Assembly (NCBI GenBank): GCA_965220085.1
Contig: CBDCOZ010000003.1
Span: 864,001-928,000, forward strand
Direction: 5' to 3'
From: Candidatus Oxydemutatoraceae bacterium
Lineage (GTDB): Bacteria; Pseudomonadota; Gammaproteobacteria; Poriferisulfidales; Oxydemutatoraceae
DNA length: 64,000 bases
Positions 36,949-58,323 of the stretch are shown here, one piece after another (position 1 is the stretch's first letter; every line of letters starts with the position of its first letter). The notes beneath the pieces are model-generated. The model made no database searches and was not told the DNA's origin. It worked only from the letters and a program-made list of their open reading frames with translations. The position numbers and the translations under genes are program-made.

Positions 36949-38223
36949 TTATCGCAACGGGCCTTCCAGGAAGAGGCGCAGCCGCAAGCGCAAGCTGCTG
37001 GGCACAACACGGGCGGCGGCGGAGCAGAGCATCTCGCTGACCGGCATCGCGTGGCTGTCCATGAAACTTACGCAGACCCTTATGTATTGTCCCACCTGTG
37101 CCCGGCCGGGGGTGAATATGGATACGTTGGTGGTGGCGGTGGCGCCGGGGATGGCGGAGTAGTCGCCGTCCTTTGGCGCGCCGGAAGCCGGGGCGGCGGC
37201 CTGTTGCCATTGCCACCTCAGGGTAGTTCGGTCTATGCCGTTGGGTTCGGTTATGCCTGCTGTGACGGTAGACAGCCGGGTTCCCTCGGCGTAGGTCGGG
37301 TTCTGGTCGGTGATGGCCGGGGCTATGGAGGGGCCGCCAGTGGCAGCGACTTGGGCCTCTGCTACCAGACGAATGTTGATAGCCGCCGCCTGGGCGCTGG
37401 TTTTGTTGTCGGTGCCATCGCTGCCATCGTCCACCACATGGAAGTTGAAAGAAGTATAAGTGTCGTCAGGGTCGTCAGGGTCGCTGGGATCCTGGCCCGG
37501 TACCGGGTAATAGGTCAGTTCACCAGCGGCCAGTTGGGCCACAGTTATTTCCATTGTGGGAGCATCGGCGGTAGTCAGGGGTGTGCCATCCAAGGCTATG
37601 GTGCCGCGGAATGGCACGGATTGCACGATGACAGCAGCCAGCATATCTCCATCGGCGGCATCGGTAAACGGAAAGTCGGTTGCCTTAAATATGTATGGAT
37701 TGGCGGCATTGGCGTTGACATTCACCGTGAGCGGATTTGTGAGCAAACTTACTGCCTCTGGCTTGTCATTGATGTTGGCCACAGCGGTGGCTATCTGCAG
37801 GCATCGCATCTCCGAGTTGGGGGTGGCGGCCATATCCATGAACGATGCGCAGACCTGCAGAAACTTGCCCACCTCATCATCGCCCGGAGTGAAAGCGGCA
37901 TTGGTCGCATCGGTGATGTCGGTGTAAGTACCGCCATTGGTGTCGGCCGCGCTCCACTGCCAACTGAAAGTGCCCAGGCCATCGGCATCGTCTATGGCGG
38001 TGTTCCCGCTGCCGCCGTTGGCGGTGATGACGGAGTCTTCAGTGGGAACGTTTATGCCGCTGGCGTAGGTAACCCCCGGCATGCCGGTGGCATTGCTCTG
38101 CGCTTGAGCCTGAGCGGATACGATGAAAAGCGCGAGCAACAAGAGCGACCGGAGGCCGCACCCGCTTAACTCAATGCGGAGGGGGGGGGGGGGGGGGGGG
38201 GGGGGGAACTTAGGCACGAACAT
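36949..38223 (-). CDS. Secreted modular Ig/cadherin-like protein (adhesin-like 1; A-B-A) ending LRLRLRLFLEGPLR
   Basis: Poly-Pro leader plus signal peptide (AQAQAQ); Cys-paired WQW...FTP...VG.FL.VC.SF.D modules and an N.NDxP...D.DGD...YYP module; conserved C-terminal tag. Confidence 0.85.
   Translation of the reverse strand: MFVPKFPPPPPPPPLRIELSGCGLRSLLLLALFIVSAQAQAQSNATGMPGVTYASGINVPTEDSVITANGGSGNTAIDDADGLGTFSWQWSAADTNGGTYTDITDATNAAFTPGDDEVGKFLQVCASFMDMAATPNSEMRCLQIATAVANINDKPEAVSLLTNPLTVNVNANAANPYIFKATDFPFTDAADGDMLAAVIVQSVPFRGTIALDGTPLTTADAPTMEITVAQLAAGELTYYPVPGQDPSDPDDPDDTYTSFNFHVVDDGSDGTDNKTSAQAAAINIRLVAEAQVAATGGPSIAPAITDQNPTYAEGTRLSTVTAGITEPNGIDRTTLRWQWQQAAAPASGAPKDGDYSAIPGATATTNVSIFTPGRAQVGQYIRVCVSFMDSHAMPVSEMLCSAAARVVPSSLRLRLRLFLEGPLR
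38181..38206. repeat. G26 homopolymer (poly-C on the coding strand) in codons 6-15 of adhesin-like 1
   Basis: Counted directly; the frame is open as assembled. Confidence 0.9.
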
Positions 38224-38269
38224 TATCAAATACTCTCATGAAGCGCATTATCAAGTGCGGGTTTTATGA

Positions 38270-55516: not shown

Positions 55517-55593
55517 CGAATCATACCGGAAACATTTCGGACTGTCGGCATCAGCACGAGCTGTTGCAATATCAACACAGGAGGATTAGATCT

Positions 55594-58323
55594 GTGAATA
55601 TTGTCAATCCCATCACTGAGTTTGCCGGGCGCGGTCTCTGGCTATTGGCATTGTCGGCTCTGCTGGCATCGCTCGCCCTGAGCGCTCCGGCTCAGGCCCA
55701 GAACCAGCCCGCCACCGGCATGCCCGGCATCCAATACGAAACGGGCATAACGCGCCCCACCGATGATTCCAGGATATTCGGCACCATGGGCACCATGGCC
55801 GATGAAGATGGCCTCACCATAAGCAACATAGACAGAGACATGACCTGGCGATGGAGCGTGGCCGACACGCACAACGGCACCTACACCGCCCATCCCAACA
55901 CCACCTCACCATTCCGGATGCGGCGCTTCATCCCCGCAGATGCCGATGTGGGCAAGTTTCTGCAGGTCTGCGCATCCTTCAGGGACGATGCCGGCAACAA
56001 CGAGGAGCTATGCAGGCGGATAAGCATGAGTGTGCTGGATGTGGACGACCCGGCCCAAGTGGGAGGGGCACATGAGGGCTTCATAGAAGTGTTTGTGACC
56101 GCGACTGCCGCCAAACCCTACGTCTTCAATGAGGACGATTTGGTATTCATTGATAACGACGGTGACACTGTGACAGGCTTCCGCATAATCACTCTTCCCA
56201 GCGCTGGCACCCTCAGGCTCAACGGTATGCCCACAGGGGGATCCTGTGAGGATCCATTTGTGGAAGTATCCAGGGCCAATATAGGCACCCTCACCTATTT
56301 TCCGGCGGCGGGTCAATCGCCAACCAAGAGCGGCTCATATGCCTTTTTCGCCGTTCAGGCGCTTAGCAGCGGGGCCGATTACAACGACCCTTGCATAATG
56401 CATAACCATACCCTGAATCAAATCTCGATAAGATTGGTTACAGACCCCGACTCCGCCACCGGCGAGCCCGCGGTCACATATGCAAGCGGCATAAATGCCC
56501 CCACTGAGGATAGCCCCATCACCGCCAATCAAGGCAGCATAATGGATACCAACAATGACCCGCCCACCGCTCTGGGCGACATCAGATGGCAATGGAGCCA
56601 GGCGGATGGGCGCGACGGCGCCTATGCCGACATAACCGGCGCAACCGATGCCGCATTCACCCCGGGCGATAATCAGGTCGGCAAGTTCCTGCGGGTCTGC
56701 GCATCGTTCACCGACGAAGACGACAACGACGAGGAGCGATGCCTGCGGATAGAGGATGCGGTTGTCAATATCAATGATGACCCCACCGGCGCCGTCAGCA
56801 TCGGCGGCATCGGCGGTAGCATTGTGAGCGAGCACGAGGAGCTCAGCGTAGCCGGCAACATTGACGATGCCGATGGCTTCGACCCAGCGAATGTAACGTA
56901 TCAATGGCAGCAGGTCGCCAGCCCCTCGACGCCCACCGCCGATGCGGCCTGGGCCGACATCGCGGGCGCCGAGTCACGGACATTCGCTTCGGACCACGCC
57001 CAGGTGGGGCATCATCTGCGCGCCTGTGTGCTGTACACCGACAATCAGGGCACCGCCGAACGGGTGTGCAGCGGGTCCATCGGGCCCATCGTCAATGCGA
57101 ACGATGCGCCGGTTGCCGCCGCCGCCACCGTGTCGGTGTCCGTCGCTGCCAGCGCCGAGGACCCCTATCGCTTCAGCGTCTCGGACTTTCGATTCGACGA
57201 TGAGGATGGGGACGCTCTTGAGAGCGTAACTTTTGTGTCCCTCCCCGCTGTCGGCGGCCTGCTGGTGGGCGAGAGCGCCGCCGACATCGGTCAGATGGTG
57301 AACCGGGCCGACATTCCCACCATCGGCTACTATCCGGCGGACAACCAGAGCCCCAACCCCAACTATGCCAGTTTCAGATTCAACGTGACCGACGATGGCG
57401 ACGGCCCCGGCGGCGACGACACCGATGCCGCCCGCACCAGTAACGCTGCCACCATCACCATCAGCCTGGTATCCGCCGAGCCGATGCCTGCCACCGGTAA
57501 TCCTGCCATAACCGGCGGCCCGGCGCGACAGGGCGCGGCGCTGAGCGCCGGGCTCGGCACAGTGAAAGATGTCAACGGCATAGACACCGACACCATAATG
57601 TGGCGGTGGCAGGCCGTCAGCCCCTCAACATCCACCGGCACCGAGGAATGGGACGACATACCGGGCGCGACCAATGACGCATTTACTCCGGGACAGGCCC
57701 AGGTGGGCATGCATCTGCGCGTCTGCATCAGATTCATGGACAACCACAGCGCCCCCGCCAACGAGGGCCCGCTGTGCTCCGCCGCCACTGACCCGGTTGT
57801 CAATGTCAACGATGCCCCGGTGGCGACGGATGACACATACACAGTCGATATAGCGCCGGGCACTCCGTTGCTCACAGACTTCCGGTTCATAATCCCCCCT
57901 CAGGCCTTTCGGGCTGCCTACGACGATGCGGACGGCGATCGGCTGGCATCGGTCACCATCACCAAACTGCCGCCCGGCGAGCACGGCGGCCTGCTCGAAG
58001 GGTCAGATCCCGCTGGCACCATGAATACTCAGATCTTAGCCGACTCCAACAACGCACCCATCCGCCCCGCTGTGTTTCGGGTATCTGAGGACGGCGAGCA
58101 GTTTGTGGATGATGACGGCAGACCCCGCTTTCTCCATTTCTCCGCCAGCCTGTTGTTCCTCTCCAGCGAAGCCGGGTTCGTCACCGATGAAACCACTTTC
58201 AAATTCACCCTCAGCGATGGCGCCCTGAGCAGCAACGAGGCCACCCTGACCATCAGACTGGTGACTCTCCAATCTGGTTTGCGCTTGCGGTTGCGCCTGT
58301 TCTTGGAAGGCCCGTTGCGATAA
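55594..58323 (+). CDS. Secreted modular Ig/cadherin-like protein (adhesin-like 3; A-B-A-A-B-A-B) ending LRLRLRLFLEGPLR
   Basis: AGGAGG SD and GTG at 55594; signal peptide (APAQAQ); repeated VVN.ND.P linkers and D.DGD motifs. Confidence 0.87.
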   Translation: MNIVNPITEFAGRGLWLLALSALLASLALSAPAQAQNQPATGMPGIQYETGITRPTDDSRIFGTMGTMADEDGLTISNIDRDMTWRWSVADTHNGTYTAHPNTTSPFRMRRFIPADADVGKFLQVCASFRDDAGNNEELCRRISMSVLDVDDPAQVGGAHEGFIEVFVTATAAKPYVFNEDDLVFIDNDGDTVTGFRIITLPSAGTLRLNGMPTGGSCEDPFVEVSRANIGTLTYFPAAGQSPTKSGSYAFFAVQALSSGADYNDPCIMHNHTLNQISIRLVTDPDSATGEPAVTYASGINAPTEDSPITANQGSIMDTNNDPPTALGDIRWQWSQADGRDGAYADITGATDAAFTPGDNQVGKFLRVCASFTDEDDNDEERCLRIEDAVVNINDDPTGAVSIGGIGGSIVSEHEELSVAGNIDDADGFDPANVTYQWQQVASPSTPTADAAWADIAGAESRTFASDHAQVGHHLRACVLYTDNQGTAERVCSGSIGPIVNANDAPVAAAATVSVSVAASAEDPYRFSVSDFRFDDEDGDALESVTFVSLPAVGGLLVGESAADIGQMVNRADIPTIGYYPADNQSPNPNYASFRFNVTDDGDGPGGDDTDAARTSNAATITISLVSAEPMPATGNPAITGGPARQGAALSAGLGTVKDVNGIDTDTIMWRWQAVSPSTSTGTEEWDDIPGATNDAFTPGQAQVGMHLRVCIRFMDNHSAPANEGPLCSAATDPVVNVNDAPVATDDTYTVDIAPGTPLLTDFRFIIPPQAFRAAYDDADGDRLASVTITKLPPGEHGGLLEGSDPAGTMNTQILADSNNAPIRPAVFRVSEDGEQFVDDDGRPRFLHFSASLLFLSSEAGFVTDETTFKFTLSDGALSSNEATLTIRLVTLQSGLRLRLRLFLEGPLR

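Follow-up and report, generated by a model that had tools for sequence, protein, structure and literature searches.

The stretch of DNA analysed here, called the window, comprises 64,000 nt of the forward strand of contig CBDCOZ010000003.1 (positions 864,001 to 928,000; assembly GCA_965220085.1) from a gammaproteobacterial 'Candidatus Oxydemutatoraceae bacterium'; positions given without a contig name are those of the window. Three dispersed open reading frames (ORFs) within it, as the initial annotation had described, end on translation in the same 14 residues, LRLRLRLFLEGPLR, directly followed by a stop codon. This C-terminal peptide, hereafter the tag, is considered as a candidate sorting or retention signal of secreted proteins. 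The features of the window that bear on it are given below.

Tagged open reading frames in the window

36949..38223, minus strand: tagged ORF1, 424 aa; on translation, a signal peptide, Ig-like A-modules, one cadherin-like B-module and the tag
36949..36993, minus strand: tag of ORF1, 14 codons encoding LRLRLRLFLEGPLR, followed by TAA
38181..38206, minus strand: 26-nt poly-C tract in the 5′ coding region of ORF1, a candidate slipped-strand phase switch
44927..45474, minus strand: 168-bp tandem array (3.3 copies, 97 % matches), downstream of ORF2
44934-44957, 45102-45125 and 45270-45293, minus strand: relic copies of the tag within the 168-bp array
45438..47021, minus strand: tagged ORF2, 527 aa; signal peptide, alternating A- and B-modules, tag
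45438..45482, minus strand: tag of ORF2, followed by TAG
55233..55262, plus strand: degenerate tag relic LRLRLFLEAP with no stop behind it, in a 114-codon open frame just upstream of ORF3
55594..58323, plus strand: tagged ORF3, 909 aa counted from GTG; signal peptide, A- and B-modules, tag
58279..58323, plus strand: tag of ORF3, followed by TAA

At all three tag ends the codons are exactly those first annotated: TTCCTGGAAGGCCCGTTGCGATAA (36949-36972, minus strand), TTCCTCGAAGGACCGCTACGATAG (45438-45461, minus strand) and TTCTTGGAAGGCCCGTTGCGATAA (58300-58323, plus strand). All three ORFs also have the signal-peptide-like N-termini and acidic bodies that had been noted, and the GTG start of ORF3 at 55594 is preceded by AGGAGG. 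A Pfam search of ORF1 gave no match; ORF2 matched Big_9 and Cadherin_5, and ORF3 matched SCAB-Ig, Cadherin_4 and Big_9. In a protein atlas the A-module resembles AIR9-A9/SCAB Ig domains (0.93), which is a lead only.

A degenerate pattern for FLEGPLR and a stop matched the window six times and 100 dinucleotide-shuffled windows not once. The six matches are the three gene ends and the three copies in the 168-bp array, the unit of which spans the final 11 codons of the tag, its stop and the roughly 130 bp that follow. Other arrays of this kind (156 bp; about 120 bp) lie elsewhere in the genome (G000), for example at C3:513743-514211 and C3:1303686-1303926. The tag on three proteins of the window is thus real, but the initial annotation understated its scale, which is about 190 proteins genome-wide, and overlooked the three array copies, the one relic and the poly-C tract of ORF1 in the window.

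Genome-wide copies and conservation of the peptide

The genome, of 2,492,841 bp in three contigs with about 55.6 % G+C, is 99 % complete with 0.34 % contamination. A six-frame scan of the whole of it with F[LIVM]EG[PA]LR gathered 220 in-frame copies of the tag; these are related to each other, and the counts given here are not of independent events. In 215 of the 220 a stop lies directly behind the Arg. Stop-to-stop frames of at least 100 aa are closed by 192 copies and amount to 164,595 codons, or 19.8 % of the genome, the longest having 15,193 codons. The shorter frames, about 28, are relics, many of them within tandem arrays resembling that of the window.

In an alignment of the 220 copies anchored at the Phe codon, the information per site is 1.8-2.0 bits at the first two codon positions and 0.56-1.5 bits at the third, and Leu codons begin with either C or T. 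The same 3-base rhythm is present in the LRLRLRL half of the tag, which was absent from the collecting expression, and conservation there is therefore not circular. A profile hidden Markov model (HMM) run over 46,117 open frames found only about eight single-substitution variants against the 220 strict copies, including FLEGSLR, FLEDPLR, FLECPLR, FLEWPLR and FLKGPLR (twice), the majority in short relic frames. Given this codon-periodic conservation and the scarcity of variants, the peptide is under purifying selection, residue by residue; what had been proposed from the synonymous differences between three gene ends holds across the genome. The tandem array had raised a DNA repeat or mobile element as an explanation, and this was rejected on the codon-periodic conservation.

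Position of the tag relative to the preceding domain

The last 100 aa before the tag in 176 proteins fall into 13 BLAST clusters (61, 41, 31, 14, 11, 10 and 2 members, and six singletons). The initial annotation had proposed counting the diversity of passenger domains by motif and HMM searches, and these 176 proteins do show such a diversity. Pfam domains on 22 tagged proteins (19 representatives and the three window ORFs) were He_PIG, Big_9, Cadherin, Cadherin_4/5, PPC, Calx-beta, Peptidase_S8, fn3, Flg_new_2, or none, and the linker from the last conserved residue of the domain to the tag is variable in length.

AlphaFold2 was run on the last 140 aa of ORF1 (ending in an A-module) and of ORF2 (ending in a B-module), with a 21-row alignment each. 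The mean predicted local distance difference test (pLDDT) values were 89.2 and 88.9, respectively, and the end domains are confident sandwiches, with block means of 91-97 for the A-type and 87-96 for the B-type. The last 16-17 residues are modelled as coil, and pLDDT drops there to 67 (ORF1) and 66 (ORF2). Foldseek placed the end domains among Ig-V-like and cadherin/lectin-like sandwiches, with weak scores. A complex prediction of four copies of the A-module with its tag returned 'no answer' (score 0.00, run without controls), which is evidence neither way.

The tail is a modular tag, separate from the last domain, because it stands behind 13 different classes of sequence on linkers of variable length, is coil in both models, and is found in a few proteins near the N-terminus, before a GGSSS linker. 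The initial annotation had placed the peptide outside the last domain and had named the counter-case, an integral strand of that domain confined to close paralogues; clusters, linkers and models all speak for the former.

Five of the 220 copies have no stop directly behind them. Two are cases of stop loss, one a frame continuing into other sequence and one an 85-codon relic. In the remaining three proteins the tag lies near the N-terminus, about 20 residues behind the signal peptide, with a GGSSS-type linker after it. PPC-like repeats make up two of these proteins; for the third (G000 C1:36358-38001), sequence searches of Pfam, NCBIfam and PDB gave nothing. The atlas clusters closest to it are lysyl-endopeptidase-like proteases of trypsin fold (0.97, 216/256 features), and from this atlas look-alike and motifs read by eye it looks like a protein of trypsin fold. 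A cut after Arg would give the N-tagged proteins, or their pro-peptides, a ...GPLR-COOH end.

An island of lower G+C content (about 48 %) lies at G000 C1:~22000-39500 (L001-L003, L066 and L071), between a full mnmG-like gene and its duplicated 5′ piece. It carries Fic-like genes (recognised by eye from their N-termini), a single protein tagged at the C-terminus and, of the three N-tagged proteins, the lysyl-endopeptidase-like one and one other; it looks like an integrated mobile element.

Passenger proteins

By crude tests, a hydrophobic run is present near the N-terminus in 172 of 176 tagged proteins and an A-x-A-like site in 142; many of the N-termini read ...LLALFVVCAQAQAQ. The passengers are secreted and acidic: net charge is negative in all 176 bodies, with a median of -6.4 per 100 aa, against a median of +1.1 per 100 aa for 1,295 other frames of at least 300 aa, spurious frames included. 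The tag itself has a net charge, from its sequence, of +3. Tagged proteins can be small, such as one of 270 aa at G000 C1:211188-212000. The giants, 13,000-15,000 aa in length (15,133 aa at most), also have clear signal peptides; they are located at G000 C3:1442649-1488050, 1770458-1813000, 1344695-1384405 and other sites, and several share a DYDSDDDGLIEI..LEQLNA.R module behind the signal peptide. Tagged genes lie in 78 clusters, with co-oriented tandem arrays reaching 12 genes, and 22 of the 23 clusters with at least three genes are wholly co-oriented.

Poly-C tracts in tagged genes

Many tagged genes, like ORF1, contain a poly-C tract at the 5′ end of the coding region. In ORF1 it separates the start codon from the hydrophobic core of the signal peptide and reads 'PPPPPPPP' in translation. 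Such a tract of 12-28 nt, seen as a run of Pro codons near the start, is present in 77 of 186 tagged ORFs, and it follows a conserved leader, ATGAA.CGACAA..TTTAATACT.CC, with the start peptide M-N/K-R-Q-x-F-N-T. Among the 90 tracts of at least 9 nt in the genome, 82 (9-28 nt) precede a long frame ending in the tag. In the assembly, 23 of these 82 are in frame with the upstream ATG and 59 are out of frame, near the chance expectation of one third. Judged from the sequence, this pattern of position and frame is the anatomy of slipped-strand contingency loci, and the putative poly-C switching points to surface exposure of the tagged proteins.

Public read data covering this DNA come from three runs of one study, none of them listed as RNA, assembled into short-read contigs. 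These contigs break at the poly-C tract of ORF1 (38171-38215) and pile up at its tag (36908-37015), where summed depth is about 730-1790 against about 14 in the flank. Since short-read assemblies break at both tag and tracts, such families are probably under-reported, fragmented or lost in metagenome-assembled genomes (MAGs).

Distribution of the tag

The strict DNA pattern, which demanded the final Arg codon and was blind to other endings such as that of protein P0081 below, matched 215 times in this genome and not at all in 40 relatives. A looser pattern had no match in 52 other genomes of the order. Of the 18 other genomes of the same family, 12 are single contigs, and absence of the tag from the family is therefore not due to assembly gaps. 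The passenger P0002 has 43 matches in this genome and none in the 18 same-family genomes; among 22 further genomes from the order, just one has any, namely two weak single-domain matches. By these matches, this passenger family is nearly private to the genome.

Among 185,579 species genomes, the strict pattern was found in one contig (L007), by chance only: the match is off-frame inside a porin-like gene, and L007 was rejected as a tag carrier. No match to the strict pattern was found in JGI metagenome contigs. The loose pattern matched 91 metagenome contigs, and a stricter expression had 37 in-frame matches in the best 80 of the 91 loci, none of which is followed by LR-stop or LQ-stop.

A profile of the tag, searched against 1.84 billion protein representatives, gave 71 matches, 69 of them new, and of these 66 are encoded by this genome. 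P0070 and P0071 were rejected as outside carriers, their matches being internal or of low complexity. The sole true outside carrier is P0081, a protein of 214 aa with a signal peptide that ends ...PLRLRLRVFLEGPLQ and is annotated as coming from a 'Candidatus Oxydemutatoraceae bacterium' MAG, Oxydemutatoraceae being a gammaproteobacterial family. A named genus of the Oxydemutatoraceae is listed among sponge symbionts in an excerpt of PMC11685487.

A search of 5.8 billion protein clusters gave 118 matches, 116 of which were assigned to the three contigs of this genome. The other two, P0143 and P0145, match the flank only, without the tag, and were rejected as carriers. P0145, from a 232,989-bp contig in ENA, has a signal peptide and a He_PIG-type body close to one subfamily of G000; its C-terminus is an Arg/His/Cys-rich stretch in the place of the tag, and the protein may be a relative altered by a frameshift or by differences in assembly.

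Strings similar to the tag do occur elsewhere. The initial annotation had likened the tag loosely to a 'KVFLEG(P/A)' strand of some Bacteroidetes surface proteins; such strings exist, but as internal strands of beta-sandwich domains and not as terminal tags. One RLRVFLEGP-like string lies inside a Pfam PPC domain of L149, and others are in the PPC-like repeats of P0070. They fit a strand-plus-turn propensity and probably explain the earlier comparison. In L144 (a metagenome contig; ORF 1818-3935, minus strand), 'LSLRLRVFLEGPFDAVGGMM' stands at the start of a C-terminal domain that has no annotation, in a protein of 706 aa with weak matches to LVIVD repeats, and this strand may be of the kind meant there.

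Envelope machinery

The genome has one copy of Omp85, as do 19 of the 20 relatives searched, together with two secretins, one TolC and ordinary PDZ proteases, none of them specific to this genome. A type II secretion system (T2SS) locus encodes GspL and a GspD that has three Secretin_N domains; the 18 same-family genomes, all without the tag, each have T2SS GspL as well. In the 78 clusters of tagged genes no non-tagged gene is recurrent. A genome scan of long ORFs for a complementary strand, hydrophobic and acidic in alternation, found none in non-tagged ORFs, the single match lying inside a tagged giant. The single Omp85, the family-wide T2SS, the want of a recurrent cluster gene and the tag on P0081 from outside the genome together suggest that the reader of the tag is generic and not genome-specific.

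Interpretation of the tag

On balance, LRLRLR[LIV]FLEGPLR-COOH is probably a hitherto undescribed C-terminal tag that sorts or retains the members of a phase-variable surface repertoire. The class of proteins so marked is very large and specific to the lineage; its members are Sec-exported, strongly acidic, adhesin-like and in part protease-bearing. A tagged protein would leave the cytoplasm via Sec and arrive at the cell surface, possibly by the family-wide T2SS, where its free tail would be read by one shared envelope component, so that the protein is sorted or held there. The tail may act as an amphipathic, cationic beta-strand with a Leu face and a mostly-Arg face, followed by an E-G-P turn and the Leu-Arg carboxylate. 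Such a strand could either engage in beta-augmentation or lie against the anionic outer leaflet, with the exact ...GPLR-COOH end conferring specificity.

Several observations weigh against this reading. Since practically only one genome carries the tag, a partner cannot be sought by phylogenetic profiling, and no candidate for a reader or partner stands out among Omp85, the secretins, TolC, the PDZ proteases and the cluster neighbours. The terminal residue of P0081 is Gln instead of Arg, and a strict requirement for a free C-terminus is at odds with the three N-terminal copies, except if these are cut behind the Arg. FLEGPLR is invariant in every residue, which argues for a specific protein reader over binding to lipid or lipopolysaccharide. 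There is also a bias at the nucleotide level. The final Arg codon is CGA in 121 copies, CGG in 96 and CGC in 3 of the 220, although in long ORFs CGC makes up 46 % of Arg codons and CGA and CGG only 9 % and 20 % (29 % together); the stops after the tag are TAG (136), TAA (51) and TGA (28), and the 6 nt behind the stop are weakly conserved (0.6-1.0 bit; consensus CGCGAG). A tag acting purely at the protein level leaves this bias in the last codon and stop unexplained.

A more elaborate version of the sorting or retention reading is possible, though doubtful. It would be a new display pathway without a transmembrane helix, in which a dedicated reader of the free ...FLEGPLR-COOH end and the Leu/Arg strand loads about 190 phase-variable adhesins, and proteins of the mobile island join by means of an N-terminal tag, freed by the tagged lysyl-endopeptidase-like protease cutting behind the Arg.

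The alternatives, taken in falling order of probability, begin with an export signal that takes periplasmic intermediates across the outer membrane, read for example by a T2SS component, and has no role in retention. The Sec signals on the cargo, the T2SS locus and the strictly terminal position in 215 of 220 copies, which suits reading of a free end, agree with this; however, the T2SS of all 18 untagged same-family genomes is evidently independent of the tag, three proteins carry it at the N-terminus, cargo of up to 15,133 aa would be unusual for a T2SS, and there is no extra Omp85/TpsB-type translocator, which makes such a signal rather unlikely. Slightly less likely again is a donor strand, by which the tail would complete an incomplete beta-sandwich of a scaffold or of the next tagged protein, forming fibres or a mixed coat. 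L-x-L-x-L-x-L-x-L is a typical donor pattern, the passengers are Ig-like and cadherin-like sandwiches, and near-identical strings are real strands in the PPC-type sandwiches of L149 and P0070. Both modelled end domains are complete, though, with no open groove reported, and the tag follows at least eight unrelated domain types; the clusters contain no acceptor gene, and the non-tagged long ORFs no complementary strand of alternating hydrophobic and acidic residues.

The improbable remainder places the function of the tag outside the envelope of the bacterium or at the nucleic acid level. C-terminal-Arg 'C-end rule' peptides bind animal receptors, and a eukaryotic host receptor might read the Arg tail in a similar way, a protease specific for basic residues activating the N-terminal copies by laying bare an identical end. 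Domains of eukaryotic type (Cadherin, fn3 and DSCAM-like Fn3) are present among the passengers, the family of the outside carrier includes a genus described, in the excerpt referred to above, as a sponge symbiont, and one N-tagged protein resembles a lysyl-endopeptidase-type serine protease; but the tail lacks the basic residue at -3 of the C-end-rule motif and P0081 ends in Gln, and there is little to be said for host targeting overall. It is still harder to credit an element of translation or mRNA, where the nascent peptide, the rare last codon and the stop context would act at termination, for example as a ribosome pause. Such an element would account for the exact stop distance in 215 of 220 copies and for the CGA/CGG last codons, TAG-rich stops and conserved 6 nt, but not for three N-terminal copies with no stop nearby or for an outside carrier ending in another residue, and about 190 unrelated structural genes are unlikely targets of an arrest peptide. 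Last, the shared 3′ end and 5′ leader could serve as DNA handles for recombination or cassette shuffling, the peptide being incidental. Tandem arrays that repeat tag DNA with downstream sequence (168 bp, 156 bp and about 120 bp) and co-oriented tandem gene arrays of up to 12 would suit this, yet the 3-base periodicity with free synonymous sites is the opposite of homogenisation at the DNA level, and 42 bp with many mismatches is a poor substrate for recombination; this explanation is largely refuted.

Comparison with known systems

The initial annotation had set the tag apart from described sorting signals by the lack of a transmembrane helix, a terminal aromatic residue, a barrel and a folded C-terminal domain (CTD), and it indeed matches no described sorting signal. 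NCBIfam sorting models had no match at any C-terminus of 11 tagged proteins at E-values up to 0.1-1, although HMMER filters can drop very short matches, and the tag motif is absent from the literature searched. The lone TIGR04183 match is internal, at residues 136-181 of a 517-aa PPC-repeat protein.

PEP-CTERM with exosortase, LPXTG with sortase and GlyGly-CTERM with rhombosortase likewise place a short C-terminal tag on many unrelated Sec-exported proteins per genome, with large lineage-specific expansions and adhesin-like and protease-bearing passengers. Those signals have a motif followed by a transmembrane helix, about 15-20 hydrophobic residues long, and then a basic cluster, and are cleaved by a membrane transpeptidase or protease. 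The tail described here, in contrast, has 14 residues with Arg at every second position, allows no hydrophobic helix and ends exactly at Arg; the comparison was made by tag and models, with no search aimed at exosortase, sortase or rhombosortase genes. The CTD of the type IX secretion system is also a C-terminal element carried by dozens to hundreds of surface proteins and proteases behind many domain types, but it is a folded beta-sandwich of about 70-100 residues in Bacteroidota, modelled by TIGR04183 and TIGR04131, whereas the present tail is unfolded.

The signal read by the beta-barrel assembly machinery is, like the tag, an amphipathic C-terminal beta-strand at the very end of the protein. 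It ends in an aromatic residue and closes a barrel, while the tag ends in Arg in 215 of 220 copies and is preceded by soluble sandwiches; no autotransporter-type Pfam domain was found in the 22 tagged proteins. RTX substrates of the type I secretion system are secreted by means of a C-terminal signal that is not cleaved off, and lack an N-terminal Sec signal, unlike the tagged proteins, 172 of 176 of which have a signal-like run by a crude test. Donor strands of chaperone-usher and type V pili are likewise terminal extensions with alternating hydrophobic residues on Ig-like passengers, and in LRLRLRLFL Leu takes alternate positions from L1 through L9, one of which can be Ile or Val. The end domains of the tagged proteins are nevertheless modelled as complete, unlike those of pili, and no chaperone or usher turned up, although no search was aimed at those families.

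Homopolymeric-tract contingency loci occur in Neisseria, Haemophilus and Campylobacter. As there, the poly-C tracts lie in the 5′ coding region of genes for putative surface proteins, with about one third in frame. The difference is one of number and concentration: 82 tracts of 9-28 nt are found in 2.49 Mb, nearly all on one tagged family, which would place this among the largest known repertoires of contingency loci. Such a repertoire of switches would imply strong, fluctuating selection on the cell surface by host, phages or grazers.

The tag is compact, being short enough for synthesis, fusion and mutation, and as LFLEGPLR is a tryptic peptide, mass spectrometry can track retention or removal of the tail. 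To our knowledge, two kinds of bacterial sorting tag have been described, folded domains and motifs joined to a membrane helix, each with known machinery. Compared with these, an invariant, helix-free tail of 14 residues on about 190 proteins would indicate a hitherto undescribed route for addressing or holding proteins at a Gram-negative surface.

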